The notes under the pieces: model-generated
Told to the model about the DNA's origin: nothing
What the model saw: the letters and a program-made list of their open reading frames with translations, nothing else
The model's database searches: none
Assembly (NCBI GenBank): GCA_021822495.1
Contig: JAKAQO010000005.1
Coordinates: 42,548-106,547 of the forward strand
Direction: 5' to 3'
Length of the DNA stretch: 64,000 nucleotides
Origin: a bacterium
Lineage (GTDB): Bacteria; Elusimicrobiota; Elusimicrobia; UBA1565; UBA9628
In this document: one piece after another, positions 9,833 to 53,462 of the stretch
Numbering within the stretch: position 1 is the first letter of the stretch
How the letters are laid out: the number at the start of each line of letters is the position of its first letter
Made by a program: the position numbers and the translations under genes

Positions 9833-9861
9833 GCATTATAGAATTTACACTTCTATAATGC
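9833..9861. promoter_or_regulatory. Perfect 11-bp inverted repeat GCATTATAGAA-N7-TTCTATAATGC immediately upstream of the minus-strand ATPase start
   Basis: The palindrome contains TATAAT on both strands, making it a candidate operator overlapping the -10 element. Confidence 0.4.
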
Positions 9862-10056
9862 AAAACGGAAGGGGGGGGGCCGCTTCTCTTACGGAATCTG
9901 GAAGCGGCACTTCCTCGCCTAGGCTCGGTCGGATTCTCGCTCATCCGTCGCTTCGCTCCTCCCTTGCGACCCGCCAGTCGCGCTGTCGCGAAATTTCATT
10001 TCGCTTTTCGTCCCCCGGACGCGCGCGACTTGGCTTCGAATCCCTTCCCATAAAAA

Positions 10057-10143
10057 CGGAAGGGGGGGGATTCGAACCCCCGATACCCTTGCAGGTATGG
10101 CAGTTTTCGAGACTGCTCGTTTCAACCGCTCACGCACCCTTCC
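10057..10143 (-). tRNA. tRNA-Ser (anticodon CGA)
   Basis: The reverse complement reads GGAAGGG TG CGTG AGCGGTTGAAA CGAG-CAGT CTCGAAA ACTGC-long variable arm-CGGGGG TTCGAAT CCCCC-CCTTCC. The anticodon loop is CTCGAAA and the long variable arm is typical of Ser tRNAs. Confidence 0.8.
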
Positions 10144-10146
10144 TTA

Positions 10147-10172
10147 AAAAAAAGGGGACTGTCCCCTTTTAA
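10147..10172. terminator. REP (core GGGGACTGTCCCC, 10154-10166) between the vapC stop and the tRNA-Ser 5' end
   Basis: The A8/palindrome/T4 structure is present. Confidence 0.55.
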
Positions 10173-23202: not shown

Positions 23203-23252
23203 AAAAGGGGACAGTCCCTTTTTTTGAGGGAAAAGGGGACTGTCCCCTTTTG
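23201..23252. repeat. REP inverted doublet (REPIN-like); cores 23207-23218 and 23235-23247
   Basis: GGGGACAGTCCC, an 18-bp spacer, then GGGGACTGTCCCC. The doublet follows the TAA of the phosphohexomutase. Confidence 0.6.
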
Positions 23253-23257
23253 TTTTT

Positions 23258-24295
23258 ATGAAAGCCATGCTTCTGGCCGCGGGCGCGGGAACGCGGCTTC
23301 GGCCGCTCACCTATCAAATCCCCAAGCCCCTTATTCCCGTCGTCAACCGCCCGGTCATTCATTTTGTTCTGGACAATTTAGCCCGCCATGGGATTAAAGA
23401 AATCATGATTAACCTGTTCGCCCACGCCGATCAAATTCGCTCTTATTGCGGAGACGGATCCAAGTGGGGGCTTAAACTTCAATACTCGCAAGAGCCGACT
23501 CTTCTGGGAACCGCCGGCGGAGTTAAAAGAGTGGAATCCTTTTTCAAAGGCGCGCCCTTTTTAATCATGTCGGGGGACGGCCTTTCCGATATTGATTTAT
23601 CCGCCATGATCGCTTTTCATAAAAAAAAGCGCGCGATGGGAACGATTGCGGTCAAAAAGGTCGACTCCCGTTTTGAATACGGAATCACGCTTCTTAAACC
23701 TTCCGGGCGCATCACGCAGTTCGTCGAAAAACCTTCCTGGGGGGAAATTTTCTCCAATACCGCCAATACCGGAATTTATCTCTTTGAGCCGGAGGTTTTG
23801 AAATATATCCCTAAGGGAAAACCTTATGATTTCGGGCATGAGCTTTGGCCCAAACTTTTGAAACTTAAAAAGCCCATCTTCGCCTATCCCCTCAAATCCT
23901 ATTGGACCGACGTCGGAAATCTCGCGGAATACCGCAAAAGCCAAATTGACTGTTTGGACGGAAAAGTCAATATCGCTCTTCCCGGACGGCAAATTTCCAA
24001 GGGAATCTGGATTGAGGAACCGGTCTCTATTTCTCACGACGCGGTTTTAAAAGCGCCTTGCCTTATCGGCAAAAACGTCCAAATTGCCGCCTTCGCGGAA
24101 ATCGGCCCCTACAGCGTGATTGGAGCCGACTCAAAAATATCCTCGCGCGCCGTGCTTAAAAATTGTATGCTTTTTGATAACGTGATCGTGGAAAAAGAAG
24201 CTCATTTATCCAACTGCATTCTAGGCCCTAAAAGCGTGGTCAAGGAAAGCATTACCGCTTATGAAGCCGCTGTTCTCAATATGCCGCAACAATAG
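23258..24295 (+). CDS. Sugar-1-phosphate nucleotidyltransferase (mannose-1-P guanylyltransferase-like) with a C-terminal hexapeptide beta-helix
   Basis: LLAAGAGTRLRPLT is the NTP_transferase signature. Confidence 0.65.
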   Translation: MKAMLLAAGAGTRLRPLTYQIPKPLIPVVNRPVIHFVLDNLARHGIKEIMINLFAHADQIRSYCGDGSKWGLKLQYSQEPTLLGTAGGVKRVESFFKGAPFLIMSGDGLSDIDLSAMIAFHKKKRAMGTIAVKKVDSRFEYGITLLKPSGRITQFVEKPSWGEIFSNTANTGIYLFEPEVLKYIPKGKPYDFGHELWPKLLKLKKPIFAYPLKSYWTDVGNLAEYRKSQIDCLDGKVNIALPGRQISKGIWIEEPVSISHDAVLKAPCLIGKNVQIAAFAEIGPYSVIGADSKISSRAVLKNCMLFDNVIVEKEAHLSNCILGPKSVVKESITAYEAAVLNMPQQ

Positions 24296-25522: not shown

Positions 25523-26284
25523 GTGAACAAAACAATCAAGAATGCCCCAGAAGCCTTATCCGGCCTTTTTGATGGGGCCACGATCATGATCGGCGGGTTT
25601 GGTTTATGCGGGCTTCCAGAAAAAATGCTGGAAGAAATTCAAAACATCAGCGCTAAAAATCTCACCATCATTTCCAACAACGCGGGAACCGACAACTACG
25701 GAATTGGGCTTCTCATCAAAAAAGGCCGGGTCAAAAAAATGATCATGTCTTACGGCGGAGAATGCAAGGCTTTTGAGGAAGCGGCTCTCAAGGGCTTAAT
25801 TGAAGTTGAGTGGACGCCGCAAGGGACCTTGGCCGAGAGAATCCGCGCGGCGGGGGCCGGAATCGGCGGTTTTTTTACGCCTACGGGATACGGCACGGTC
25901 GTCGCCGAAAGAAAAGAGACCCGCAACATTGACGGAAAAAATTATGTCTTTGAAAAACCGCTCTTTGCTGATTTCGCCTTGATTAAAGCCTGGAAGGGGG
26001 ATACGCTCGGAAATCTCATTTACCGTAAAACCGCGCGCAACTTTAATCAGGCCATGGCCACCGCCGCGAAAACGGTCATCGCGGAAGTTGAGACCTTGGT
26101 CAAACCCGGCGATCTTGAACCCGACGCCGTTCACACGCCGGGAATTTATGTTGATAAGATTTTCCAAGGCGCAAGCTACTTAAAACCCATTGAGAAACTA
26201 ACCGTCCAAGAGCCCTCCGAAAAAGGGGACAGTCCCCTTTTTCATGAAAATGGAGGAAAAAGGGGACTGTCCCCTTTTCTATAA
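25523..26284 (+). CDS. 3-oxoacid CoA-transferase subunit A (ScoA/AtoD-like), with a repeat-encoded C-terminal extension
   Basis: GTG start. MIGGFGLCGLPE is characteristic. The ORF has no stop before 26282 and reads in frame through both REPs (tail ..KGDSPLFHENGGKRGLSPFL). Confidence 0.7.
   Translation: MNKTIKNAPEALSGLFDGATIMIGGFGLCGLPEKMLEEIQNISAKNLTIISNNAGTDNYGIGLLIKKGRVKKMIMSYGGECKAFEEAALKGLIEVEWTPQGTLAERIRAAGAGIGGFFTPTGYGTVVAERKETRNIDGKNYVFEKPLFADFALIKAWKGDTLGNLIYRKTARNFNQAMATAAKTVIAEVETLVKPGDLEPDAVHTPGIYVDKIFQGASYLKPIEKLTVQEPSEKGDSPLFHENGGKRGLSPFL
26221..26280. repeat. REP inverted doublet; cores 26225-26237 and 26262-26274
   Basis: GGGGACAGTCCCC, a 24-bp spacer, then GGGGACTGTCCCC. The doublet lies inside the 3' end of the scoA reading frame. 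Confidence 0.6.
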
Positions 26285-26941
26285 ATGGATAAACGAATCG
26301 TCATCGCCAAAGCCGCGGCCAAACTTCTTAAGGATGGAGATTACGTCAATCTCGGCATCGGAATTCCGACTCTCATTCCCAATTTTCTGCCGCAAAAGGT
26401 TCATATCGTTTTACATACTGAGAATGGAATGCTCGGCTACGGCCCTTACCCCATTCGCGGCACGGAAGACCCCGATATCATTAACGCAGGAAAAGAAACG
26501 GTAACCGAAATGGAGGGTTGTTCTTATTTCGGATCTCACGAGTCTTTCGCCATGGTCCGCGGCGGACACATTGACGCCAGCGTCCTTGGCGCGATGGAAG
26601 TCTCTGAAAAAGGGGATATCGCCAACTGGATGATTCCGGGAAAAAAGGTCAAGGGAATGGGCGGCGCCATGGACATGGTAGCCGGCGCCAAAAAAGTCAT
26701 TGTCGCGATGGAACATGTGAGCAAAGAAGGCGCGCCCAAGATTTTAAAAAATTGCCAGCTGCCTCTCACTGGAAAAGGGGTGGTTTCCGCAATCGTGACC
26801 GATCTTGCCGTTTTTGAGATTACGCCCGAAGGACTTCTCTTAAAAGCCCATCATCCGGAGACGACGATTTCTCAAATTCAGAATTTGACGGACGCGAGTT
26901 TTAAAATCGCGCCTCAACTGGACGCTTCCTTTTTTCAATGA
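26285..26941 (+). CDS. 3-oxoacid CoA-transferase subunit B (ScoB/AtoA-like)
   Basis: NLGIGIPTL and the ENG catalytic Glu context (HTENGMLG) are present. Confidence 0.75.
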
Positions 26942-34372: not shown

Positions 34373-34497
34373 GGAAGAAAAAAAAGGGGACAGTCCCCTT
34401 TTCCTCATAAACTTAAGGTCGGGGACAGTGCCGTCCCTAAGAATTATGAAGAAGAGGCACAGTCCCCTTTTTTCTTCGTTATTTCTTCGTGATTGAT
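34373..34497. repeat. Composite 120-bp REP-containing leader element (copy 1), near-identical to 47086-47210
   Basis: Three REP-like cores (34386-34398; the variant GGGGACAGTGCCGTCCC at 34421-34437; GGCACAGTCCCC at 34456-34467) plus conserved flanks TTCTTCGTYATTTCTTCRTGATT. Confidence 0.6.
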
Positions 34498-34524: not shown

Positions 34525-37500
34525 ATGCGAAAAAAGAACATTTGTGAACTCGTCTCCGAAGGCGCCCAACAAAAACGTTCCCAAAAATTAGGAAGATGGG
34601 GACTCTCCCTAACTCTCCTCATTTTTCTCGCCGCCCAAGCAAAAGCACAGGTGCAAAATATTATCTCGACGCCGACCTATCCAGCCAACGGCTCTTATTT
34701 TAATCTGCAAAACCAAACGCCGAACTTTAACTGGTTCGGCCCTTCCACAACGACAATTCAATTAGCGACTTCTCCTGTTTACAATCTTCAGGTCGGCACT
34801 GACCCCACCTTTGCCGCCGGCCTTGTTATTAACGTGCAAATTGCCGCCGTGATCCCAAGCACCGGCCTCCCAAACGCTTATGGCTCCTACCTGTCTGGAA
34901 CTTCTCTAACCAATAACACCACTTATTATTGGCGCGTCTATGCGACAGATAGCTCCGGAGGCGAAAGTATGTCTTGGAGCACATTTAGCTTTGTGACTGA
35001 TTTTGCCCCTGATTCTAACCTTTCAGCATCTTACTCGGGAACGTTGAACTCTTTAGGACAGACTACTCCAGAAAACCAGTTTGTTTCTTTATCCAATGGC
35101 GCGACATCTCAATTATCCGTTTCGGCTTCATTCAGTGGGATTGCGGTTTCAAGCTCCGCCGTACCGTTAACCGGGGATAGCGCTAGTTTTACACAAGGAA
35201 CCAGCGGCTACGGTGTCCTCTATTCGACCAATTCCGGCACGACCTGGGAGGATTACTCCTCATTAGGCATAAATGTTCCAGCAGCTGGCGGTGGAGCTAC
35301 GATCTGGAATTTAGCTGTTTTTAACGGTTTTCTCTACGCTGGTCTAAGCAACGGTTCTATCATTCACACAAATAATGGAACGAGTTGGAATACGGATTAT
35401 ACTGGTTCAAATTATGGAATTGGTGGTTTTACCATATATAAAAACACTCTTTACGCCTCAAACCACGACGGTAGTAATGCGTATATGGTCTCAATTACCA
35501 ACGCTGGAACGGTCAACCGAGCCACTGTATTCAACTCTGGAGCGGGTGTGAGTAAACCAGTCGTTCTTAATAATACTCTTTTCGTCGAAGCTTCTTATAC
35601 TGGAATCCCCGCAGGAGATCCTGGAGCTGGCAACGCTGGAGGCGGAATTTTTGCGTCACAAGACGGCATCCATTGGGTTCAAACGTCCGGTGTTGGCGTA
35701 TGTAGCGACAACTTTGACCAGCTTTTTACATTTAATGGAGAGCTTTATGCAAATGTACAATCAGGGGGTTTTGGATGCAGCGGGTTATTCGTAAGCCCAG
35801 ATGGGGTCAATTGGACAACAATTGACAATCAAAGCGTTCCAGGAACTGTTAATACCGCCACAGTTTTTAATGGAAAACTTTATATTGGAGTAAACAATGG
35901 AGGCTCAAACCCGCTCCTCTATTCATCCACTAATGGGCAAAGCTGGTCAGCGGACAATGGAACACTGACCCAACCTTCCTTGGGGGGCAGTGTCAACGAT
36001 CTTAATGTGGTCAATGGCAAGCTTTACGCCGGTATTTCCACGACCACTGCCAGAATATATGTGACCGAGGATGGAAACAACTGGTTTCCATCAATTTCAG
36101 GCGGCACAGGACAAACAGGAGCAGGAGCGCCCGTTTATTTTAATGGGAATTTTTATGCCGCCGCTGGTCCCGATATCATCACCATCTCGCCCTTTAGCGC
36201 CTCTCTACCTGGTTCTAATGGAGAGCCTTCTGGAACGCTTTCTGCCGTCAGTCCGCAACTTGCCGCTTCAACCACGACAACTACTTGCGGCGGAGTGTCT
36301 CCTTGCAACGCAACCAACCAAGTCATATTTACCGCAAGCGATATGGCAGGAAACACCCTCATGTCTGGTCCTTATGCTATTTTAGTTGACACCGAGGTCG
36401 GGGTCGCCATTTCAACGCCCAGCTATCCGGGAACGCCGACAGTGGGACAGTCTCCTCCGGGGACAGTCCCTTACGTGAACGTTCAGCCCAATTTCGACTG
36501 GATTGGGCCTTCAACCGGGGTCGCTTCGGCTTTGCAGCAGCCCGCCAATTTTTTTCTTGAGGTCTCATCCAACGATCCAACTTTTTCGCCTTCTAATATT
36601 GTGATTAGCACCTCGACTCCGGTCGTCGTTTATTCCACCAATGTCCCCACCGCCAACGGAGCCTACCTTTCGCCTTACGTGCTGGGAAATAACACCACTT
36701 ACTATTGGCGCATCTATATAAAGGATAATCTGGGCGGAACCAGCCCCACATCCCCAACCTATAAATTTATCACGGATTTTGCTCAACCCGCAGTGTCCAC
36801 CTCCAGCTTTCAGAGCATCAATGCCCAAAGCTCGCTCTTACCGGAAAATCAGTTTAACGATCTCGCTTCGGGCGTCACCGCCCAAATTACGGTCCAAGAT
36901 ACTAATTCAGGCCTTGCCGTTTCGACCAGCGCGCTTTCTTTCGCGGGGGATGGACATGATGACCCTCCAATAACCTCGGGGTTTGGAATTATCTATTCCA
37001 CAAATGCCGGGTTCTCATGGATAGTGCAGTCCACCTCCGCTGAAGCCAACAACGGCAGCGCGGTGGGAACGGGAATTCGCTCATTAGCTGTATTTAATGG
37101 GGATATCTACGCTGGGGATTACAGCGGTCATGTCTATTACAGCGCCGACGGCAACACCTGGAGCGCGGGAACTCCCGGGACAAACCCCATTCAATCTTTA
37201 AGCGTCTTCAATGGAATCTTATACGCCGGAGACGGCGGAGGATATATTTACTCAAGTTCAAACGGCAGCACTTGGAGTACAACTAATGGCGGCTCTGCCG
37301 TTGGGGCAGGCATACTCGCAATGACCGTCTTTAACGGACAACTTTATGCCGGAGATAATTTTGCCCGCGTTTTTGTCATGGATGCAAGTGGAAATTGGCA
37401 TAACGTAGACGGCGGAACTGTTGGAACGAGTTCCATTGAATCCTTGGCCGCGTTCAACGGCCAACTCTATGCCGGAGATTATTATGGAAATATCTATGCC

Positions 37501-40500: not shown

Positions 40501-42159
40501 TCATACCCCTTTATCTCGGGAACCGGCATCATTCCCTTTTCGCCGGGAATCACCATCAGCACTATTCCCATCCGGCTTCTGGTCGCGGTAGACGTTTCAA
40601 CCGGAGCCAATTATCTCAACAATGATTTTGGAATCGGAATTTCAACTCCCGCCAATATCTCAATCAACGCGCCCAATTTTGTCGTTCCCTCAACCACCAC
40701 ATTCCCGGCCGATTCAAGTATTATTCCCATTACGAAAGCCCCGGATGTCATGAGCGTTTTCCCGACTTCCTTGATGGATGTCAACGGCGTCGTTCAAGGC
40801 CAAAACGCGCCGGCGGCGAAACTGAGTTTAGTCACCCAGCACAGTTCCGTGACCTGGACGACGATTTCCGTTCAAAGAAGCGGCACCCTGCCGGATTCGG
40901 GAGTTGATTCCGTCAATATTTATGACGACGTAGATCAAAATGGTGTTCTTGACTCTTCGGATGTCCTAGTGGGAAGCGCGCCCTTTGTTTCCGGAACAGC
41001 CAATATTTCTTTCTCCACCGCGCAACTGGTCAGCCCCGCAGGAGCGGATTATCTCATTACGCTTCAAATTGACCCTAACGCTACTCCGGGAGACACCATT
41101 GGAATTTCCTTGTCCGGCGTGTCCAACTTTACCGTGTTGCCCCCGGACACCGTCTCGGGTTCAAGCCTTCCGTTTAACTCGGCCTTAGGGCCGGTTCTCA
41201 ATATTAAAACTCCCACTCAACCCATCGTCACTTTCCCGAACGGAGATTATTCCAGCTCCTTTGATTCGGTCGGCTTTATCTGGTATTCAACGGTCGCCGT
41301 CGGTTCCATTTCCAGCGCGGCCTATGCCGTGGGAACGACTCCCGGGGGAACCGATATCGCGCCGTATACCGCCATTCCTTTTGCGGCGTCTAGTTTCACC
41401 GCGACCAATCTTCTCCTCTCTAACGGGGCCACTTATTATGTCTCGGTGGAAGCCACCTCTAACTACGGCTTTACCAGCCCGCCGGGAATCAGCCCCGGGT
41501 TTTTGGTTGATTTAATCACCCCAGGGTCGCCGACCAATCTCAGCGCCAATGTCGGCGTAAGCTCGATTTATCTGACCTGGGATCCGGGAACAGTCGGGCC
41601 CTCAGGCGCTTCGGGATATCTTCTCGAATATTCAGACGTCGAACATCCGACCTGGTATAACGCCAAGACCGGAGCGGTCACCGCCCTGGCCGCCGGCCCC
41701 CATGGAACTCTTTCGGCCAATTTCATTCCCTCTTCGCCGTTTTTGTTCAACAATCCGCCGCAAGGAACCCTTCTTTTCCGCGTTAGTTTAGTCAACGGCG
41801 CGGGGGTTCAAAGCGCCCCGTCCAATTCGATCAGGGTTCTCTTTGGAACGCAGTCAAACGCTGGAATATCGAACGTCTCATCCTATCCCAATCCCTTTAA
41901 CTCAAATTCCGGAGTCGCGACTATCGTCTACACCTTGGATACTCCGGGGAATGTCTCCATTCAAATCTACAGCGTCTTTGGGAGTCTCGTCAAAAGCCTC
42001 TCTTATTCTGGTGGAAGCGTGGGGGGGCAAGCCGGCGTCAATACCGTGACCTGGGACGGAACCGACTCAGGCGGACGCAAAGTCTCCAAGGGCATCTACA
42101 TCGCCGTCCTCAAAGCCAATGGTATGAGCGTCCAATACAAAATCGGGGTCAATCACTGA
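34525..42159 (+). CDS. Giant (2544 aa) secreted repeat-rich surface protein with Asp-box/BNR-like beta-propeller repeats, FN3/Ig-like modules and a T9SS-type C-terminal sorting domain
   Basis: A signal peptide is present. There are three super-repeats of about 560 aa, each with TTYYWR(V/I), S-x-(D/N)-G-x-(S/T)-W propeller repeats and the Cys motif CGG.SPC.AT.Q..FT.SD. Five repeats of about 125 aa follow (..IYRD.NGTG..). An FN3 domain is next (IYLTWDPG), and the protein ends in a C-terminal domain of type PNPFN..ATI.Y.L....V.I.IY...G.LV..L..G..WDG.D..G..V..GIY. Confidence 0.75.
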   Translation: MRKKNICELVSEGAQQKRSQKLGRWGLSLTLLIFLAAQAKAQVQNIISTPTYPANGSYFNLQNQTPNFNWFGPSTTTIQLATSPVYNLQVGTDPTFAAGLVINVQIAAVIPSTGLPNAYGSYLSGTSLTNNTTYYWRVYATDSSGGESMSWSTFSFVTDFAPDSNLSASYSGTLNSLGQTTPENQFVSLSNGATSQLSVSASFSGIAVSSSAVPLTGDSASFTQGTSGYGVLYSTNSGTTWEDYSSLGINVPAAGGGATIWNLAVFNGFLYAGLSNGSIIHTNNGTSWNTDYTGSNYGIGGFTIYKNTLYASNHDGSNAYMVSITNAGTVNRATVFNSGAGVSKPVVLNNTLFVEASYTGIPAGDPGAGNAGGGIFASQDGIHWVQTSGVGVCSDNFDQLFTFNGELYANVQSGGFGCSGLFVSPDGVNWTTIDNQSVPGTVNTATVFNGKLYIGVNNGGSNPLLYSSTNGQSWSADNGTLTQPSLGGSVNDLNVVNGKLYAGISTTTARIYVTEDGNNWFPSISGGTGQTGAGAPVYFNGNFYAAAGPDIITISPFSASLPGSNGEPSGTLSAVSPQLAASTTTTTCGGVSPCNATNQVIFTASDMAGNTLMSGPYAILVDTEVGVAISTPSYPGTPTVGQSPPGTVPYVNVQPNFDWIGPSTGVASALQQPANFFLEVSSNDPTFSPSNIVISTSTPVVVYSTNVPTANGAYLSPYVLGNNTTYYWRIYIKDNLGGTSPTSPTYKFITDFAQPAVSTSSFQSINAQSSLLPENQFNDLASGVTAQITVQDTNSGLAVSTSALSFAGDGHDDPPITSGFGIIYSTNAGFSWIVQSTSAEANNGSAVGTGIRSLAVFNGDIYAGDYSGHVYYSADGNTWSAGTPGTNPIQSLSVFNGILYAGDGGGYIYSSSNGSTWSTTNGGSAVGAGILAMTVFNGQLYAGDNFARVFVMDASGNWHNVDGGTVGTSSIESLAAFNGQLYAGDYYGNIYASTNGSSWNSLGTIGNSGSLIETMAVFNGKLYAGDSNGFIHFSANGASWTTSNNGSAVGSGITALTVFNGQLYAVDALGYVHISADGVHWNSIKVATQGTGLAGFNGNLYVGDYYGAVYRAIPLAATLSGSDGTTASQTLSANNLNLVQSTTTATCGGTSPCSATDQIIFTASDLAGNVVESGPYAILVDTTVAPAISTPSYPLNGAYLNFNPNFNWTGPSTSIVSGLLAPSYYQLEVSSNDPTFATVFVNISTPIPPVNTGLSTDNGAYISTYTFANLTTYYWRVRTIDGFGGTSPWSTTFSFTTDFSSPTAVGGSFATLNSLGGLVPENQVTVLQSGVTAQINITDIGSGFSAFNSSNYSVRYSTNAGLSWISEPFSALAFTGSIGQTSTQTFTAYGLNLAASTNSYVCGGISPCGATNQVEFTFSDQALNFSTAGPFAVIVDTHSTDVLVSTANVAPLGIPQNTSVAFIRLTLNSLTGTAPWTGLTVQRLGSGTDADVQNVAIYRDNAGTGIFSPSDTQITQNAVFSGGIVNLTMTNPESITTSTKTYFLVYTAAPGALVGDGLAAEITSTASFTFSNGYQMSSAQTTIYPLISSTATVVDGPNYLYITPASQAPNDAPPGTANIEMLSLKAYTNTGTSTLSKIVFHLLGTGASNDISSISIYRDSNGTGVYAPNDSLVTSGSDSFFNGVSTVAFTTTIASETVTTSPIYYFVLISLSPNAPLGDTLGISISTTSDVELIDVLDTTTFTTSPAASSLLTIEYINTLNVQGVNQIPSSLLQGQQYAILKASFTVSTGETSFNGITITRIGLGHDSDVSAVRVWQDPAPPETFNPATFLQLSSGTFVNGNAQLNFPLQTLSAGTTYVYYVTYNISPTALQGDTLGGRITSNLDISDTNPGTTIVGNFSINSATSPVVPTTAGLFVSAQNVAPSDLLQGATNQQMLNLTMDTTQYSVLLGALTFNSLGTASSSDISRVEVYQDLVGNGILNTSTDPLLSAVSYPFISGTGIIPFSPGITISTIPIRLLVAVDVSTGANYLNNDFGIGISTPANISINAPNFVVPSTTTFPADSSIIPITKAPDVMSVFPTSLMDVNGVVQGQNAPAAKLSLVTQHSSVTWTTISVQRSGTLPDSGVDSVNIYDDVDQNGVLDSSDVLVGSAPFVSGTANISFSTAQLVSPAGADYLITLQIDPNATPGDTIGISLSGVSNFTVLPPDTVSGSSLPFNSALGPVLNIKTPTQPIVTFPNGDYSSSFDSVGFIWYSTVAVGSISSAAYAVGTTPGGTDIAPYTAIPFAASSFTATNLLLSNGATYYVSVEATSNYGFTSPPGISPGFLVDLITPGSPTNLSANVGVSSIYLTWDPGTVGPSGASGYLLEYSDVEHPTWYNAKTGAVTALAAGPHGTLSANFIPSSPFLFNNPPQGTLLFRVSLVNGAGVQSAPSNSIRVLFGTQSNAGISNVSSYPNPFNSNSGVATIVYTLDTPGNVSIQIYSVFGSLVKSLSYSGGSVGGQAGVNTVTWDGTDSGGRKVSKGIYIAVLKANGMSVQYKIGVNH

Positions 42160-42827
42160 TATGAAAAAAAGGGGACAGTCCCCTTTTTGGGGGAAATCTC
42201 GAAAAAGGGGACTGTCCCCTTTTTTGGCCGCCCGATGCGGCGCTCAAGCCCCATTTCCTCTCTTATCTCTTGCTCACGCTCACCACCATACACTATTTCT
42301 TTATAAAAATAAGCCCTCTCCTGGGCAGAATTTCCAAGAGATAAATAACCTGGGCTTTCCTCCAGAAAAGGGGACTGTCCCCTTTTTCCTGTATAGAATC
42401 CATAGCTGGACCAAGAGTAATCTTCCGGTTTTTTCACGATGGCTGCGCGAACGGGGTTTAACTCAATATAACGGCCACAGAAAAGCAGGCTTCTCTCCGT
42501 TGGCAACAAGACGCTTTTATAACGCCCCTGCCAGAGATGACCCACCAGAGAATTTTTTCCTCGGAAATAATCGGAATATCCCTGCAAAAGTCTTTGCATC
42601 GCCTTACCCAGGTCTTCCGCTTTTTGAACTTGAGCTAAGAAATGAACATGATTTGGCATTAGGACATAATGATACAGGTGAAAAGGATTTTTTTTCTTCG
42701 CCCATTTCAGAAGAGCTAAGAATTTTTCATAATCTAAATCTTCCTGAAATATCTTCTGTCGGTTATTCCCACGAGCCATCAGATGATAAAACATTCCCTC
42801 AAGCACATTTCTCCTCTGTCTTGGCAT
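42153..42827 (-). CDS. IS200/IS605-family Y1 tyrosine transposase of the REP-associated type (RAYT)
   Basis: The HuH motif is MPNHVHFL and the catalytic Tyr context is GHLWQGRYKS. One REP (42370-42382) is inserted in frame, giving GKRGQSPF. The ORF has no stop until it has read through the downstream REP doublet (..KKGTVPFFEISPKKGTVPFF). Confidence 0.7.
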   Translation of the reverse strand: MPRQRRNVLEGMFYHLMARGNNRQKIFQEDLDYEKFLALLKWAKKKNPFHLYHYVLMPNHVHFLAQVQKAEDLGKAMQRLLQGYSDYFRGKNSLVGHLWQGRYKSVLLPTERSLLFCGRYIELNPVRAAIVKKPEDYSWSSYGFYTGKRGQSPFLEESPGYLSLGNSAQERAYFYKEIVYGGEREQEIREEMGLERRIGRPKKGTVPFFEISPKKGTVPFFSYQ

Positions 42828-42960
42828 ATCACCCCTCCTTTCCGCCTAGATTCTCTGCTATATTTCATACGGCAGAAACACAAAAAAAGTTCCCTCAAAA
42901 AAAGGGACAGTCCCTTTCTCGGTTAAAATTCCTAAAAAAAGGGACTGTCCCTTTTTTCTT
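42161..42960. mobile_element. RAYT-REPIN unit: RAYT gene flanked by inverted REP doublets (42165-42235 and 42897-42960)
   Basis: Downstream doublet cores are at 42171-42183 and 42207-42219. Upstream doublet cores are at 42904-42914 and 42941-42951. This is the classical genomic context of REP-associated tyrosine transposases. Confidence 0.6.
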
Positions 42961-44485
42961 ATTTCTACTTCTCTCTTCCATATCGGCTTCCGCAGCCAGC
43001 AGCTTCTATGCCGGTTCTCCTAACGAAATTTTCCAGTTCGGAGCTGACGCCAGGGCCATGGGAATGGGAAACGCTTATACCGCAATCGCTGGCGGCGCGT
43101 CTTCTCTTTACTACAACCCCGCAGGACTCGGCCTTCTCAATGGTCCCGATATCAGCGCCATGCAGGCCAGTCTCATTGGCGGCGCGGCTTATGAAAATTT
43201 ATCCTATGCCCAGAATTTTTCAAAGATGCCTGGAGCTTGGGGAGTTGAAGCCCTCAACATGGGCGTTGGAGGGGCCGAGCAAAGGGACTCTCAAAATAAT
43301 TTGACCGGAAGTTTTGGCTTTCAAGAAACCGGATATGGAGCGGGATTTGGATTGCGAAATGTCGTCATTCCAGGTTTATCATTGGGAGGATCTTTCCAAG
43401 GGCTCAGCCGAAGCTTAGGTGGAAGTTCTTCCGACATGCTCTATGGAGCCAATCTCGGCGCCCAATACGGCCCTTTTTTTGATAATATGGTGACCGCCGG
43501 ACTCGTTCTCCAAAACGGCTTTAACGGAGCGCAAAACACCTTTGACCGGTTGCCTACGGTTCTACGCGCGGGCCTGGCCGTCACTCCCATCGACAATCTT
43601 CTTATCTCCGCGGACTATGGAAACGACGGAGATTATGGAATAGGCGCGGAATATAGAATATGGATGTTCGCCCTGCGAGCCGGATATATGCCGGAAGGCC
43701 TCACCTTTGGCGCTGGAATCTATTATAAATCAATGGAAGCCGATGTCGCGATGGTCAATGATCCGATTTTTGGAATGGGGGAGCGGTTTTCGATCAACTA
43801 CCGATTCGCGGGGAAGAAAAAAGAAAAGCCTCTCCAGACTTATACCAACAGTTATCTTGACGCCGCGAAAAAAGAACTTAATATTCGCAATTACCTCAGC
43901 GCGCAACTGGCTCTTGAAGAAGCGATGGGGATTGATCCAACCCAGATTCCCCAAATATGGAAGGAAAAACTCAAACTTCTTCAAGCGTTCAATCAATATT
44001 TAGATCTCAAGAATCGACCGGATGAGGTTAAGACTCTTCTCGCTAATGATCCGGCGGCGATACTCGCCCAAAAATCGATTTTTTCTTATTTAGAGGGGCG
44101 TGACGGCGATGCGATGATTTGGGCCTCCGTGGCCGCTGGAACGGCTCATAAATCCATGCCCTATATTGACTTTATCAAGACAATGGCTTATCTTACGAGT
44201 ATGAAGGTTTCGGAAGGAGATTTGTTGCCGCCGGCCGAATATGTTTCCAAAAAAATGGAGACTGCTCTTCAGGACATTTATCAAAAACGCTTCGCGAATT
44301 CAGTCAGAGATTGCCAACAGGCCATTGTGGTCAACCCGAAAGAATCTTCCGCCTGGACTCGTCTTGGCAGCGCTTATTTTGCCTGGGGACACAAACAAGA
44401 AGCCAAAAAGGCTTATCAAAAAGCCCTGGAGCTCGATCCCAAGGATGAAAATCTTAAGAAATTCATGGAGATCTATATCAAATGA
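42956..44485 (+). CDS. Outer-membrane beta-barrel protein with a PorV/PorQ-like N-terminal motif and C-terminal TPR; 5' start unresolved
   Basis: The signal-peptide-like segment KKGTVPFFLFLLLSSISASAASS is partly encoded by a REP. It is followed by FGADARAMGMGNAYTAIAGGASSLYYNPAGLG and Gly-rich beta-strands, with TPR at the C-terminus. No ATG/GTG/TTG start exists between the REP doublet and this segment. The frame is open back to 42161, antisense to the RAYT gene. Confidence 0.45.
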   Translation, partial: FLFLLLSSISASAASSFYAGSPNEIFQFGADARAMGMGNAYTAIAGGASSLYYNPAGLGLLNGPDISAMQASLIGGAAYENLSYAQNFSKMPGAWGVEALNMGVGGAEQRDSQNNLTGSFGFQETGYGAGFGLRNVVIPGLSLGGSFQGLSRSLGGSSSDMLYGANLGAQYGPFFDNMVTAGLVLQNGFNGAQNTFDRLPTVLRAGLAVTPIDNLLISADYGNDGDYGIGAEYRIWMFALRAGYMPEGLTFGAGIYYKSMEADVAMVNDPIFGMGERFSINYRFAGKKKEKPLQTYTNSYLDAAKKELNIRNYLSAQLALEEAMGIDPTQIPQIWKEKLKLLQAFNQYLDLKNRPDEVKTLLANDPAAILAQKSIFSYLEGRDGDAMIWASVAAGTAHKSMPYIDFIKTMAYLTSMKVSEGDLLPPAEYVSKKMETALQDIYQKRFANSVRDCQQAIVVNPKESSAWTRLGSAYFAWGHKQEAKKAYQKALELDPKDENLKKFMEIYIK

Positions 44486-44552: not shown

Positions 44553-44561
44553 GAGGTTGTC

Positions 44562-47075
44562 ATGGACATATTAATGATTATTTTTATCCCAAGTCTTTTT
44601 CTTGTGTTGGGAGCCCTGATGTTTATCGTCAGCCGGGTCATGGAGTTTTCACAATCCAACCGTTATTTCGCAAAACAACGAGGAAACAGTCTTATGTTTA
44701 CACGTTTCATGACTCAAATCGCCATAGCGAAAAGCCAACTGGGAAAAAGGGCCCAGGAACTGGAAGCCCTCTCCATGCGTCTTCAAATGAACAATGAAGA
44801 GCTCGCGAGGCTCAACAATCTCAAGATGAAATTTCTTTCCATGGCGGTTCATGATATTCGAAACCCCTTGACCGCCATTACCGGCTATAGCGATATCCTG
44901 TCTCGCAACAAAAATATTGGTCCGAAAGAACAAGTCCTCTCGAAAATGATCTTGACCGCGACGCGGCAAATCAACCACCTCATGGGCGACTTGACCGATC
45001 TGGCCGTCATCGAAGCGGGAAAATTCAAGATGGAAATGGCGCCCTTTGATCTGGCCGGACTCATCCAAGAAGTCGGCGCGACGCTGGCTCCTGGAGCCTC
45101 TAACAAAGGCGTCATTCTTTCTGTTCTGGAACCTCCGTCGGGAATCATCATCACCGCCGACCGCTACCGCATTTGGCGCGTTTTGACGAATCTTTTAGGC
45201 AACGCCGTCAAATTTACTCCCTCGGGCGGCCGCGTTGAACTGAGAGCCGAAGTCGCGGCGGGAATGGCCATGATTTCCGTTCAAGATAATGGTCCCGGAA
45301 TTCATCCCACCGAACGCCGAAAAATTTTTGAAAAATTCTACCAGTCAAAGCACATCAAGGATGAAAAGGCCCGCAAGGGCGGCTGGGGGCTGGGACTCGC
45401 CATCGCCCAAGAAATTGTTCAAGCTCACGGAGGGGAAATTGGGGTTGACAGCCGCGGTCTCGGGCATGGATCCACTTTTTGGGTTCGCATTCCTCTTAAA
45501 GCTCGGCGCCCCATTCGCTCTAGCCCCATGCGCCTTTCTCTTGCTTTAATCGGGTTTTTAGCTCTTTCTTTTATTCCGAAAAAAACTGGGGCTCAAACTG
45601 TTCCCTTTCTTGAAAAATCCAAGTTCGAGAAATCCCTAGAAACCAAGGTGGACGGGGTTCTCCTCAATATCCTGGGGCCCAATCGGGCCAAGGTCATCAT
45701 CAACGCGACCTTAAACTTTACCAAGACGGAAAGTTTTCAAACCGAAGGCGCAAGCGTCACAACCACAAAAACCTCGGGGCTACCTTATCTCTGGCAAGAG
45801 CCCAGCAAAACGGCGCAGCCCGAAGAACTTCTTCCTGGAGTGCCGCTTGATTCCGGAGGCCCTGCTCTTCCCATGCCACCGCCGTCAATTAAGGGATATA
45901 AAAAAGAAGATTCCTTTCCCGCCGAATTTATCAAGAGGTTGGATGTCACTCTCATTTTGGACAATTCCGTTAAGGGAAATCGCAGCGCCGAAATCGGCAA
46001 AATTACATCCGACCTTCTCAATCTCAATCCCAAACGGGGGGATTCTTTAACCGTGGTCCACACCGAGTTTTCTCCTATTTGGAAAACCGTCTGGTATTCT
46101 CCGGCCACTGCGGGCATGCTTCTTAAATATATTTTGACCGGGTTTCTCTTTTTCATGGCCTTGATCGTCATCGCTATCGGATTCATAAAAATCGCCAACG
46201 CCATGCGCATGATGGCTAACGCCCAAGCTCAGCAAATTTCCATGGAAATGAAGGGACTCGATGGCGAGGGGGGAAGCGGACCAGGAGGGCTTTTAGGACA
46301 CAATACGCTCATGATTGGGGATCAAAAATCAGGAGAAAACGTCCCTGAGAATAAAAATGAACCCGTCATGTTCGACGTAGGGATGGATCAGGTAGAAACC
46401 CTGGCTCAAATGCTTCTCCCCGAACCGGCCAATAACATTGCCATTGTCGCGTCCCGCCTAACCCCGGATGTTTCGAAAAGACTCATTGAGGCCCTTCCCC
46501 CGGAACTGGCGACGCAAGTCATCAGCCAACTCGCTCGTCCGCGCTTTATCGATCCGGAAATTATCGTCAACTTAAAGGAAGAGCTGGAACGGCGTCTTTC
46601 CGGCGCGGTGGGAGGCGTTCATTATCTCTCGGAACTCATGTCGGCCGCCAGCCAAAAGAGGCGCCATGAGATGCTCGAAGCCGTTCGCGCGCAAAACCCG
46701 AACCTCGCGGAAGAACTTAGAAAAAGAGTCTTTTTCATCGAGGATCTTTCAAAGCTGAGCCAACAGGAATGGTCATACCTCTTATCCTTGGTCACCTATC
46801 AAGAATGGAGTGCGGCCCTTCATGAGGGACCCCAAGTGGTCGTCGAAGCCATTAAGCAAAATCTATCGGAAAAAGCCTGGGGGGTTCTTAGCGAAATGAT
46901 TGAAACGGCTTCTCCCAGCATAGAACAAGCGGAAATAGCGCAAGACAAAATCGGTCAAAGCGTCTCGGAACTCATCAAGGAACAGAGAATCAAGACCATC
47001 GCACCACAATTGGGACTTCAGGTTCATGAATCTCCAATTGAGGAAGAAAAAGGCGCAGAAAGCAACAAAAAGTAA
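44562..47075 (+). CDS. Multidomain fusion of a membrane histidine kinase (HisKA + HATPase_c), a FliF/SctJ-like periplasmic ring-building segment with a TM anchor, and a FliG (rotor/switch protein) middle + C-terminal domain
   Basis: GGAGG lies 6 nt upstream of the ATG at 44562. The kinase motifs are the H-box AVHDIRNPLTAITGYSDIL, the N-box LLGNAVKFT, and the G-boxes DNGPGI and GWGLGLAIA. There is no stop after the kinase. A signal/TM-like segment MRLSLALIGFLALSF (ATG 45528) is followed by about 200 periplasmic residues, then the TM segment LLKYILTGFLFFMALIVIAIGF. The FliG-like region is LPPELATQVISQLA...EELERRLSG.VGG...NPNLAEELRKRVFFIEDLSKLS..E..YLLS.V....AL......V.EAIKQNLSEKAW.VL.E.....SIEQAEIAQ. 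Alternatively these are two genes, with the second starting at 45528. Confidence 0.6.
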   Translation: MDILMIIFIPSLFLVLGALMFIVSRVMEFSQSNRYFAKQRGNSLMFTRFMTQIAIAKSQLGKRAQELEALSMRLQMNNEELARLNNLKMKFLSMAVHDIRNPLTAITGYSDILSRNKNIGPKEQVLSKMILTATRQINHLMGDLTDLAVIEAGKFKMEMAPFDLAGLIQEVGATLAPGASNKGVILSVLEPPSGIIITADRYRIWRVLTNLLGNAVKFTPSGGRVELRAEVAAGMAMISVQDNGPGIHPTERRKIFEKFYQSKHIKDEKARKGGWGLGLAIAQEIVQAHGGEIGVDSRGLGHGSTFWVRIPLKARRPIRSSPMRLSLALIGFLALSFIPKKTGAQTVPFLEKSKFEKSLETKVDGVLLNILGPNRAKVIINATLNFTKTESFQTEGASVTTTKTSGLPYLWQEPSKTAQPEELLPGVPLDSGGPALPMPPPSIKGYKKEDSFPAEFIKRLDVTLILDNSVKGNRSAEIGKITSDLLNLNPKRGDSLTVVHTEFSPIWKTVWYSPATAGMLLKYILTGFLFFMALIVIAIGFIKIANAMRMMANAQAQQISMEMKGLDGEGGSGPGGLLGHNTLMIGDQKSGENVPENKNEPVMFDVGMDQVETLAQMLLPEPANNIAIVASRLTPDVSKRLIEALPPELATQVISQLARPRFIDPEIIVNLKEELERRLSGAVGGVHYLSELMSAASQKRRHEMLEAVRAQNPNLAEELRKRVFFIEDLSKLSQQEWSYLLSLVTYQEWSAALHEGPQVVVEAIKQNLSEKAWGVLSEMIETASPSIEQAEIAQDKIGQSVSELIKEQRIKTIAPQLGLQVHESPIEEEKGAESNKK

Positions 47076-47085
47076 AAGAAGAAAA

Positions 47086-47210
47086 AAAAGGGGACAGTCC
47101 CCTTTTCCTCATAAACTTAAGGTCGGGGACAGTGCCGTCCCTAAGAATTATGAAGAAGAGGCACAGTCCCCTTTTTTTCTTCGTCATTTCTTCATGATTA
47201 AATGCCGCTT
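47086..47210. repeat. Composite 120-bp REP-containing leader element (copy 2), near-identical to 34373-34497
   Basis: About 115 bp are near-identical to copy 1, including the variant core GGGGACAGTGCCGTCCC (47125-47141). Confidence 0.6.
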
Positions 47211-48949: not shown

Positions 48950-48975
48950 TAAAAAAGGGACAGTCCCCTTTTTCT
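48950..48975. repeat. REP (core GGGACAGTCCCC, 48957-48968) between motA and motB
   Basis: An intra-operon copy, so perhaps an attenuator rather than a full terminator. Confidence 0.5.
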
Positions 48976-53439: not shown

Positions 53440-53462
53440 AAAGGGGACAGTCCCCTTTTTCA
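53440..53462. terminator. REP (core 53443-53455)
   Basis: It lies between the DUF3307 gene stop and the thiolase RBS. Confidence 0.55.

Follow-up and report, generated by a model that had tools for sequence, protein, structure and literature searches.

Open reading frames (ORFs) in an Elusimicrobia genome run through copies of a short palindromic REP element in scoA, in the gene for a REP-associated tyrosine transposase (RAYT) and in a PorV-like outer-membrane gene, all within the 64 kb stretch of DNA analysed here (the window). These cases are probably best explained by a lineage-specific REP/REPIN family that usually lies 3' of stop codons and that here lies where no non-coding DNA was free. 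Three sites would have lacked such spare DNA: the junction of the overlapping scoA and scoB genes, the RAYT gene towards its 3' end, and the first codons of the PorV-like gene, which would be translationally coupled to the gene upstream. Host ORFs would run through the repeats because the REP variant of this genome has no stop in any frame, and the encoded residues would be passengers. That REPs are read at gene ends is an ordinary finding; what is new is a phylum and an untagged REP type added to the known list. The unexpected result is a whole REP-RAYT-REP unit inside the outer-membrane gene, just 3' of its ancestral start codon. Comparisons covered the window together with 3-10 kb of flanking DNA at related loci, and every genome used is a metagenome-assembled genome.

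The REP family and its placement

The repeat has the form A5-GGGGAC[A/T]GTCCCC-T5 and is associated with the single RAYT gene of the window. With up to three mismatches allowed, 43 strand-matches to the motif AAAAAGGGGACAGTCCCCTTTT occur in the 64 kb, where 0 are expected, and the core GGGAC[AT]GTCCC has 26 exact occurrences; 6 of 82 loci contain this core, all from the same clade. Neither the GTAG nor the CGTC tag could be read in the consensus A5-GGGGACAGTCCCC-T5 or in its flanks. Rfam returned no REP family, its sole matches within the window being three tRNAs. Seven inverted doublets (REPINs) are present in the window, with spacings of 28 or 36-37 nt; their centre bases are A then T in six cases and A/A in the doublet 44492/44529.

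REPs are typically placed behind genes. At seven of the eight co-directional junctions that hold a REP, and at convergent junctions, the stop of the upstream gene lies 1-12 nt before the repeat, and the upstream TAA is often fused to the REP A-tract. This distance applies to ten gene ends; scoA and RAYT, in which the stop comes after the REP, are the exceptions.

TAA, TAG and TGA are all absent from the REP motif of the window genome, and all three of its frames are therefore open, as a preliminary description of this DNA had stated. The result is trivial, being due to the A5/T5 arms of this genome's variant; the variants of sister genomes, TTAGGGAC...CCCTAA and ATAGGGAC...CCCTAT, do contain TAG or TAA. 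REP-encoded peptides use all three frames (KGDSPLF, KRG(Q/L)SPF and KKGTVPFF). REPs are embedded in an ORF, between two host-homologous stretches, at residues 146-156 of RAYT, at 36443-36471 in a giant protein, in the outer-membrane ORF, and in the linker of a fused ScoAB protein in a related genome (L006).

The in-ORF copies are as near to the DNA consensus as the extragenic copies. Positionally orthologous REPs carry genome-specific arms at the scoA tail, the pgm/NTP-transferase spacer, the ATPase stop and the RAYT interior (A5/T5 in the window, AATTA/CAATT in L003, TTA/TAA in L006, AAATA/TATTT in L080 and L085). In the copies compared, it is the DNA or RNA palindrome that is maintained, not the encoded peptide. 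Because orthologous REPs, including those inside ORFs, carry the variant of their own genome, protein tails would be rewritten as the repeat population shifts, which bears on the homogenisation of REPIN populations.

Several other candidates were rejected. The ORF 9858..10172, which passes through the REP at 10151, is spurious as a gene, as it overlaps a tRNA (10057-10143) and has no family match. N-terminal read-through was rejected for the ORFs from 44241, 53375 and 59160, a start codon being found 3' of each REP; GGAGG is seen 5' of ATG 44559 and AAGGAGG 3' of the REP at 53440.

The scoA/scoB junction

The following features define the junction:

25523..26284, plus strand: scoA ORF (3-oxoacid CoA-transferase subunit A), 253 aa including the REP-encoded tail
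26285..26941, plus strand: scoB (subunit B), 218 aa
26220..26279, plus strand: inverted REP doublet (REPIN), read in the scoA frame as KGDSPLF...KRGLSPF
26220-26241, plus strand: REP1, centre A
26257-26278, plus strand: REP2, centre T
26282..26287, plus strand: TAAATG junction, the scoA TAA (26282-26284) directly before the scoB ATG (26285) in the same frame

The scoA ORF has no stop at its usual end, and the protein ends ...QEPSEKGDSPLFHENGGKRGLSPFL* after the REP doublet; the peptide GDSPLFHENGGK belongs to this tail and is encoded by the window ORF. The preliminary description had noticed this extension, and had called such REPs translated, as their open frames suggest. The match to solved ScoA structures stops at residue 229-237, and the Pfam/TIGRFAM domain ends at 215. 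ScoA is 230-245 aa long in nearly all of the best 120 homologues, from a search that scored the 8000 candidates with the most words in common with the query; the window's self match and the proteins of L003-L006 fell outside these, and the ScoA sequences of L003-L006 were compared from their DNA loci instead. Relative to REP-free homologues, the tail is a gain of 15-18 aa. In outgroup Elusimicrobia, ScoA has 234-237 aa and ends PIEKLTVRKAAAHV*, and the scoB ATG overlaps the stop as ATGTCTGA; these orthologs mark the ancestral stop.

Within the clade, REP-encoded sequence replaces the ScoA tail after PIEKLTV(Q/R)E. The tail reads KGDSPLF...KRGLSPFL* in the window and LGTVPNAR* in L003, where scoA and scoB overlap by 11 nt. 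It reads LGTVPNSHNEGASPRE in L006, continuing into ScoB as a fusion, while L004 and L005 contain a decayed form of the L006 tail sequence, likewise fused to ScoB; in these three relatives ScoA-ScoB is a single 459-aa ORF. In L080, scoA reads through a different inserted element and its stop lies 20 nt before scoB. A stop just 5' of the REP, which would have spoken against read-through, was found in none of these orthologous scoA genes. By position, the REP of L003 and L006 is the ortholog of REP1, and the decayed copy in L004-L006 that of REP2. These alignments establish the continuity of the ORFs, the orthologous positions of the repeats and the ancestral gene ends.

Human SCOT1 (PDB 3dlx) can be aligned with the fused L006 protein over the full length of both, and the REP-derived stretch coincides with the SCOT linker. 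The locus forms a series across genomes: outgroup genes overlap; within the clade, scoA ends in a REP, or in a REPIN with a single in-frame stop before scoB, or the REPIN has decayed into the covalent linker of a fused ScoAB. The series shows concretely how a selfish repeat might bring about the fusion of two genes, here with a product that parallels the eukaryotic enzyme.

A RAYT gene antisense to the outer-membrane ORF

The RAYT gene, the outer-membrane gene and the giant gene upstream of them contain these features:

42153..42827, minus strand: RAYT ORF, 224 aa, family NF047646
42166..42224, minus strand: REP doublet forming the RAYT C-terminal tail KKGTVPFFEISPKKGTVPFFSYQ, the ORF ending ...GRPKKGTVPFFEISPKKGTVPFFSYQ
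42366..42387, minus strand: interior REP of the RAYT ORF, aa 146-156, TGKRGQSPFLEE, directly 3' of the catalytic core
42161..44485, plus strand: ORF of 774 codons that includes the PorV-like outer-membrane gene
42898..42957, plus strand: REP doublet lying between the start of RAYT and the outer-membrane gene body, read as KKGQSLS...KKGTVPFF and followed by hydrophobic LFLLLSSISASA
36443..36471, plus strand: two REP-like units in frame in the giant protein (2544 aa), TVGQSPPGTVP
34598..34610, plus strand: degenerate REP GGGGACTCTCCCTAACTCTC in the signal-peptide region of the giant protein, in frame, GRWGLSLTLLIF

The RAYT protein scores 82.4 bits against NF047646 (cut-off 80). All aligned sequences share its H60 and H62 (HuH motif) and Y120, and its pN/pS against relatives is about 0.25-0.33 (NG86 dN/dS about 0.14). 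The gene is flanked by REP doublets on either side, and its position between the giant gene and the outer-membrane gene is the same in L083, L085, L086, L167 and L168. GRPKK, the conserved C-terminal motif of the RAYT family, stops where the REP A-tract begins, and the ORF continues through the doublet, which on the plus strand provides the first codons of ORF 42161..44485 (MKKRGQSPFWGKSRKRGLSPF). The RAYT tail includes the peptide GTVPFFEISPK. The preliminary description was correct about this C-terminal read-through and missed the interior REP.

In L083, L085 and L086 a REP occupies the interior site too; two reading frames are represented, and every copy is of the variant typical of its genome. 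The window and L083 read the site as GQSP, L086 and L085 as (G/R)DSP, and its arms follow the genome (A/T arms in the window, ATAGGGAC..CATTT in L085); between the window and L085 this copy shows a compensated +1/-1 shift. A metagenome scan with the RAYT protein recovered distant relatives only (54% identity or less). In a k-mer screen of these distant loci, flanking repeats overlap the last codons in some (for example, L119), and the interior-site REP is absent; the interior REP is thus clade-specific. Simple insertion is apparently not the whole story for this copy, because it adds no net length relative to distant homologues.

ORF 42161..44485 runs from the ancestral start through a REP doublet, the stop-free strand antisense to RAYT, another REP doublet and the hydrophobic region of a signal peptide to the PorV-like barrel and TPR repeats. 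The ancestral outer-membrane start codon lies 1 nt 3' of the stop of the giant gene. Through the doublet at 42898-42957 the frame reads ...KKGQSLSRLKFLKKGTVPFFLFLLLSSISASAASSFYAGSP, so KKGTVPFF is indeed REP-encoded in the signal-peptide region, as the preliminary description held. Its proposal of an N-terminal leader fails locally: ATG, GTG and TTG are absent in every frame from 42828 to 43007 of the window, the only in-frame start candidates 5' of the signal-peptide segment are TTG 42821 and the rare ATA 42860, and the ORF extends upstream to ATG 42161. Its N-terminal stretch amounts to 264-293 codons versus 35-36 in REP-free homologues, a gain of 228-258 codons, and includes the peptide DDPPENFFLGNNR from the antisense-RAYT part.

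Across six genomes, the antisense-RAYT frame contains 0, 0, 0, 0, 0 and 1 stops over 180-224 codons. It is stop-free and in register in five of the six, where about 12 stops are expected (the window-wide stop rate for this frame is 5.6 per 100 codons), and synonymous-codon permutations match the observed stop count in 0-32 of 3000 trials. RAYT pS (0.60-0.83) is not below that of the neighbouring outer-membrane gene (0.52-0.69). A conserved antisense protein was rejected, the synonymous sites of RAYT being saturated; judged from these codon statistics, the absence of stops alone is conserved. The lack of stops in this frame shows that one of the three sites is under genuine selection to stay translatable. 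At the outer-membrane/RAYT site, "passenger" would thus not be a full account.

With somewhat less than even confidence, we suggest that the whole REP-RAYT-REP unit is nested in the PorV-like gene just after an ancestral start coupled to the giant gene, and that translation of the host ORF continues across the REPs and the RAYT antisense (about 230-260 extra codons before the hydrophobic region), with selection only for a stop-free, in-register frame. Transposase and host would share DNA on opposite strands, with stop-free REPs as both boundaries, and the same logic would cover the scoA tail and the ScoAB fusions. A functional RAYT lies antisense inside the maintained frame of another gene; if that frame is translated, it would be a clean natural example of selection that favours translatability and nothing else, and would give a domesticated transposase a novel means of persisting within an operon.

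REP-encoded residues (WGLSL or KKGTVPFF) occur in the outer-membrane signal peptide of five related genomes (L085, P0243, P0241, L083 and the window). In L085, P0243 and P0241 the REP-bearing signal peptide has its own ATG, which in L085 goes together with decay of the antisense frame, and the corresponding outgroup signal peptides are REP-free. In the giant protein, the units at 36443-36471 are absent from its two paralogous internal repeats and add about 10 aa. The degenerate REP at 34598-34610 resembles the TTAGGGACAGTCCCTAACTCTCAT variant of L006. The retention of REP residues in signal peptides, of the outer-membrane protein in five genomes and of the giant protein, could indicate a use beyond mere tolerance.

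Competing explanations and known systems

If REPs lie where spare DNA was lacking, their residues would be passengers at positions that tolerate any sequence. These would be the C-terminus of ScoA, corresponding to the interdomain linker position of single-chain SCOT enzymes, the variable region 3' of the catalytic core in RAYT, and the n/h region of the signal peptide in the outer-membrane protein. The REP-encoded tails are presumably produced and functionally neutral.

Read-through may instead be selected, ribosomes melting a REPIN hairpin that would otherwise terminate transcription or mask a start, and so keeping the coupling and 1:1 expression of scoA with scoB and of the giant gene with the outer-membrane gene. 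This possibility, which we regard as the strongest competitor although a rather doubtful one, draws on the geometry of the junctions: both are overlapping or at most 2 nt apart in outgroups (ATGTCTGA, TGATG, TAAagATG), and the stop-to-start contact in the window and the overlap in L003 retain such proximity. The scoA doublet folds into a single strong hairpin (-41.6 kcal/mol, z = -6.0) followed by a U-run; the ancestral-type REP TTAGGGACAGTCCCTAA has one open frame only, the very one in which L003 and L006 read it as part of scoA; and in six genomes the antisense-RAYT frame has stayed open, apart from a single stop in one of them. A general need for read-through at operon junctions is weakened, however, by the seven of eight co-directional REP junctions that lack it. 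Between the outer-membrane and HisKA/FliG genes, 4 nt apart in outgroup L170, the window has an untranslated REP doublet, and the scoA stop of L080 lies 20 nt short of scoB. The scoA cases may also share a single ancestral insertion and so would not be independent events.

It is unlikely that the in-ORF REPs are not insertions at all and that coding sequence was overwritten by gene-conversion-like homogenisation, or by repeated RAYT-mediated replacement, in step with the current consensus. The length gains at the ScoA tail, the giant protein and the outer-membrane gene are clear, and the conversion mechanism is hypothetical, although the unchanged length at the interior RAYT site, the genome-specific arms of orthologous REPs and the compensated shift between the window and L085 are what overwriting would produce.

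Less likely again is that REP peptides have been put to use, the A-tract lysines and the phenylalanine/leucine of the T-tract arms as the n- and h-regions of signal peptides and the REPIN as a flexible interdomain linker. REP-derived residues do stand in the outer-membrane and giant-protein signal peptides, those of the outgroups being REP-free, and a REPIN-derived linker does join ScoA to ScoB in L004-L006 at the SCOT linker position. The peptide is not conserved, however, as frames and REP variants differ by genome; copies inside ORFs adhere to the DNA consensus no less than those outside; the signal-peptide segment of the window has no start codon of its own; and linkers and signal peptides accept nearly any sequence of suitable composition. 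An artefact, in which a sequencing or assembly error in the repeat deleted the true scoA stop or a frameshift conceals one, can be dismissed as extremely improbable: short-read metagenome assemblies are prone to errors in repeats and homopolymer runs, but the identical 253-aa ScoA is called on six contigs from different assemblies (including an ENA assembly and NCBI GCA_027319695.1), read-through recurs in five related genomes, each with a different sequence, and a single indel inside a REP that is stop-free in all frames could not create a stop.

The window has several parallels among known systems. The preliminary description was mistaken in holding that in-frame REPs are not generally known: REPs wholly inside ORFs were catalogued in many species by Di Nocera, De Gregorio and Rocco (2013, PMC3733652), slightly more than 10% of these intragenic copies falling at the COOH end and a larger share at the NH2 end, with REP termini supplying stops. 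Repeats extending gene 3' ends were reviewed by Delihas (2011, PMC3184786). The window REPs resemble the GTAG/CGTC REPs as short palindromes, single or dimeric, mostly extragenic near 3' ends with a minority inside ORFs or at their COOH or NH2 end, with termini able to supply stop codons, and linked to a RAYT; they differ in being untagged and in their Elusimicrobia host. In the parts of PMC3733652 consulted, no REP inside a RAYT gene, REPIN as a fusion linker or nested REP-RAYT-REP unit is described, all of which are cases here.

The window also recalls the Rickettsia palindromic elements (RPEs), residues being added at tolerant positions and host genes left intact. RPEs are about 100-150 bp long and are typically internal insertions, whereas in the window single units measure 22 nt and doublets about 60 nt, most of them lying at junctions or the ends of genes; we know of no RAYT linked to the long RPE-1 elements. 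These in-frame palindromes, which leave genes intact, were described by Ogata et al. (2000), as cited in PMC3733652 and PMC3184786.

REPINs have been described as extragenic, and REPIN-RAYT systems are known (Bertels and Rainey 2011, PMC3116915). The window shares with them inverted doublets that form one long hairpin, REP positions that persist among relatives, and a REP-flanked RAYT, the only one in the window, which may likewise be a vertically inherited single gene; unlike them, some of its REPINs are read through by ORFs and its RAYT is embedded in the frame of another gene. In E. coli, ribosomes are reported to stall at REPs that follow a stop codon by no more than 15 nt, with less translation of the upstream gene (Liang, Rudd and Deutscher 2015, as cited in PMC12306157). 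Most window REPs, which start 1-12 nt after the upstream stop, share this geometry, whereas in the read-through cases the stop comes after the REP.

Long antisense overlapping genes include pop, antisense to ompA (PMC7103648), and overlapping genes of P. aeruginosa (PMC8850804). The antisense-RAYT frame is likewise a long stop-free frame opposite a conserved gene, with statistical evidence of maintenance; it differs in being continuous with a flanking ordinary gene and an ancestral start, and in the saturation of RAYT synonymous sites. Finally, the ScoA-ScoB fusion of L004-L006 has the same domain order and linker position as single-chain SCOT (PDB 3dlx), whereas the bacterial linker is derived from a REP doublet and the scoA and scoB of the window are still split by one in-frame TAA.

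The REP family and its usual placement

The AAAAAGGGGACAGTCCCCTTTT motif, with up to three mismatches, gives 43 strand-matches in the window versus 0 expected, and the exact core GGGAC[A/T]GTCCC occurs 26 times. Seven doublets are present, with a spacing of 28 or 36-37 nt, and six of the seven have the inverted (REPIN) arrangement, with centre base A then T. The gene at 42153-42827 (-) scores 82.4 bits against the NCBIfam cut-off of 80 for REP-associated tyrosine transposase (RAYT), retains the HuH histidines and the catalytic tyrosine in alignment, and is flanked on both sides by REP doublets.

At ten gene ends a REP begins 1-12 nt past the stop codon, the TAA often being fused to the A-tract, and a single REP (32233/32255) is bracketed by the TAA codons of a convergent gene pair. 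Such a terminator-like position 3' of genes is ordinary for REPs (PMC3733652), and a stop codon shortly before a REP is a geometry reported to stall Escherichia coli ribosomes (Liang et al. 2015, as cited in PMC12306157). A 104-aa ORF running through the REP at 10151 (9858-10172) is spurious, as it overlaps a tRNA gene on the opposite strand (10057-10143); this REP is located between the tRNA and the stop of a PIN-toxin gene (10178).

Several REPs end 4-8 nt upstream of the next start codon (23250-23258, 26279-26285 and 48971-48975), and nothing resembling a Shine-Dalgarno sequence separates the two; in this organism the U-rich REP arm may belong to the region where translation initiates. Three REP-like units (GGGGACAGTCCCC, GGGGACAGTGCCGTCCC and AGGCACAGTCCCC) occur together in a composite element (about 120 nt) that exists in two near-identical copies (34374-34495 and 47078-47200), placed just 5' of the genes that begin at 34525 and 47202, respectively.

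The scoA 3' end

The gene for subunit A of 3-oxoacid CoA-transferase contains a REP doublet that its ORF reads in two different frames:

25523-26284: scoA ORF, 253 aa, C-terminal end ...PIEKLTVQEPSEKGDSPLFHENGGKRGLSPFL-stop
26220-26241: REP1, within the scoA ORF
26257-26278: REP2, within the scoA ORF
26282: scoA TAA, followed directly by the ATG of scoB (subunit B) in the same reading frame

The match to solved ScoA chains stops at residue 229-237, domain models cover the protein to residue 215 only, and the 120 best database matches are, with few exceptions, 230-245 aa long. The doublet forms one hairpin of -41.6 kcal/mol (z = -6.0). An identical protein is called on GCA_027319695.1 contig DAHVMS010000016.1 and on ENA ERZ27237373 k141_686699; all sequences compared are metagenome assemblies.

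Outgroup Elusimicrobia encode a ScoA of 234-237 aa with the terminus PIEKLTVRKAAAHV-stop, and their scoB ATG either overlaps the scoA stop (ATGTCTGA) or is no more than 5 nt away. Thus, the junction had no intergenic space. In the related locus L003 (91% identity), a single REP, ttaGGGACAGTCCCCaATG, is read through to give the tail ELGTVPNAR, and the scoA stop falls inside scoB codons 3-4. L006 (86%) carries the same REP and a decayed second copy (GGGGGCGTCCCC), in frame and without any stop. ScoA and ScoB form one 459-aa ORF in L006 (4001-5377), L004 (1441-2817) and L005 (3162-4538); both REP units are decayed further in L004 and L005, the fusion is the same, and in all three the linker is the decayed doublet. 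In an end-to-end alignment of the fused L006 protein with the single-chain human succinyl-CoA:3-ketoacid CoA-transferase (SCOT1; 3dlx), the REP-derived stretch RELGTVPNSHNEGASPRE falls on the SCOT interdomain linker RKEGDGEAKSAKPGDDVRE. Thus, the ScoA tail is at a site that tolerates arbitrary sequence.

L080 (89%) has a different palindromic element at the same site (about 4685-4800; GTCACTCCGGCAATCCGTAAGCCGGAGTCC ... GGATTCCGGCTTACGCCGGAATGAC), which is read through to give a 30-aa ScoA tail, and a REP remnant (GGCAGTTCCTAACT) past the scoA stop, just before the scoB ATG. Small palindromic elements appear to have landed repeatedly at the scoA 3' junction. Because REP read-through or remnants occur across the clade scoA loci, the junction REP is ancestral to the clade, and one ancestral insertion may underlie all the read-through cases. 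The preliminary description, which held that REPs are translated in frame as C-terminal tails or N-terminal leaders, took as the contrary result an orthologous scoA with a stop just ahead of the REP; no such stop is seen across the clade loci.

REPs in the RAYT gene and the surrounding outer-membrane ORF

RAYT proteins end in a GRPKK motif and a short variable end. In the window, the KK codons of this motif merge into a REP doublet at its A-tract, and the ORF goes on as KKGTVPFFEISPKKGTVPFFSYQ-stop. A third REP lies inside the gene (aa 146-156), directly past the catalytic core, and a REP occupies the same site in L083, L086 and L085, whose RAYTs share 63-70% aa identity with that of the window. 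The encoded peptides differ among the four (GKRGQSPF, EKGQSPF, KGDSPLF, NRDSPHF) and the DNA follows the REP variant typical of each genome, the arms being A/T in the window and ATAGGGAC..CATTT in L085: at this site, the palindrome is what is maintained. The protein is under purifying selection between related genomes (pN/pS about 0.25-0.33; NG86 dN/dS about 0.14). The interior REP brings zero net length gain versus distant homologues, and overwriting of existing sequence, not insertion, is a live alternative here.

Positionally orthologous REPs likewise have genome-specific arms: A5/T5 in the window, AATTA/CAATT in L003, TTA/TAA in L006, and AAATA/TATTT in L080 and L085. This comparison of sequences suggests that the whole REP population changes in concert, copies inside ORFs included.

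Orthologous REP sites
Window: 23207/23235, 26225/26262, 28510/28547
L003: 1613/1719, 4700, 7062
L006: 1647/1714, 4694
L005: 6134/6240

The RAYT gene lies within a longer frame on the opposite strand:

42161-44485 (+): outer-membrane gene, PorV-like/TPR, 774-aa ORF
42828-43007: zero ATG, GTG or TTG in all frames
42898-42957: REP doublet, read by the outer-membrane frame as ...KKGQSLSRLKFLKKGTVPFFLFLLLSSISASA, then ASSFYAGSPNEIFQFGADARAMGMG

The outer-membrane gene scores 73.3 bits for PorV_fam, under the cut-off of 90, and has TPR domains. Outgroup homologues have ordinary signal peptides without a REP, 10-12 residues ahead of a GxGAR..GMG motif. Clade relatives have a REP in the signal peptide and an ATG of their own (MFPWKWGLSLFILFLAHFGSAAS in L085, MFPWSWGLSLSL.. 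in P0243 and MRRKKFPWKWGLSLF.. in P0241); the position of this ATG reads AAG in the window and L083. The window frame is open back to ATG 42161, 1 nt past the stop of the giant upstream gene (...KIGVNH-stop, TGAtATG), and outgroup genes start at the same point (...KIGVIH-stop, TGATG in L170; TAAagATG in L171). From this ATG to GxGAR..GMG there are 35-36 codons in the outgroups and 293, 279, 282 and 264 in the window, L083, L168 and L085, respectively, with the frame kept in all four. Two REP doublets, with the RAYT antisense strand between them, account for the extra codons.

The antisense-RAYT frame has no stop in the window (224 codons), L083 (211), L086 (212), L168 (212) and L167 (at least 180, to the contig end), and one in L085, the TAG of its REP variant; about 12 are expected. 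Per 100 codons, the mean number of stops in this frame is 5.6 across 46 window genes and 4.7 across 80 distant RAYT homologues, and no homologue among these 80 is stop-free. Synonymous-codon permutations matched the observed count in 0-32 of 3000 per genome, the six genomes being related to one another, though saturated at synonymous sites. An antisense stop is unavoidable where Phe is followed by K, N, T, I or M, and the 14 Phe residues of the RAYT protein include no such case. Synonymous sites are saturated (pS 0.60-0.83) and therefore antisense conservation means stop absence and register only, not protein sequence. The simplest reading, to which we give slightly less than an even chance, is that a REP-RAYT-REP unit is nested in the outer-membrane ORF just past the ancestral coupled start codon and that the frame is translated. 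Some relatives would later have acquired a new ATG close to the hydrophobic region, and L085 would then have gained a stop.

In the giant protein (2544 aa), one of three paralogous internal repeats carries two in-frame REP-like units (TVGQSPPGTVP; 36443-36471) and exceeds the others by about 10 residues; the signal-peptide region of this protein has a degenerate REP (34598-34610; GRWGLSLTLLIF). The gene 3' of the outer-membrane gene (44559-47075; 10568-13072 in L170) is an unusual fusion of HisKA and HATPase_c with FliF_C/FliG_M/FliG_C; MotA/MotB- and FlgO/CsgG-like genes lie downstream of it in the outgroup cluster, and the upstream giant gene bears a FlgD_ig domain.

Origin of read-through and comparison with known REPs

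In the best account, REPs would have inserted at sites without non-coding DNA; as the window variant is stop-free in all frames, host ORFs read through it, and the REP-encoded residues would be passengers where the protein tolerates them. Read-through could instead be under selection, to keep genes coupled or to suppress the hairpin; this version fits the two junctions that overlap ancestrally but is weakened by seven of the eight window REP loci between co-directional genes, which are not read through; these include the outer-membrane-HisKA/FliG junction, only 4 nt in L170.

An Rfam search returned no family matching the window REP, which, unlike the GTAG/CGTC superfamilies (PMC3733652), lacks both tags. 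In the papers covered by a limited literature search, there was no description of a REP retained within its RAYT gene, of a REPIN-derived linker in a gene fusion, or of a maintained host ORF with a RAYT nested inside it in antisense. Contrary to the preliminary description, in-frame REPs as such are not new: Di Nocera et al. (2013, PMC3733652) already describe ORF-internal and terminal REPs. Many species there have REPs wholly inside ORFs, where dimers encode 20-30 aa; the COOH end holds slightly more than 10% of these REPs and the NH2 end a larger share, and some stop codons are supplied by REP termini. In-frame fused repeats that lengthen gene 3' ends have also been reviewed (Delihas 2011, PMC3184786).
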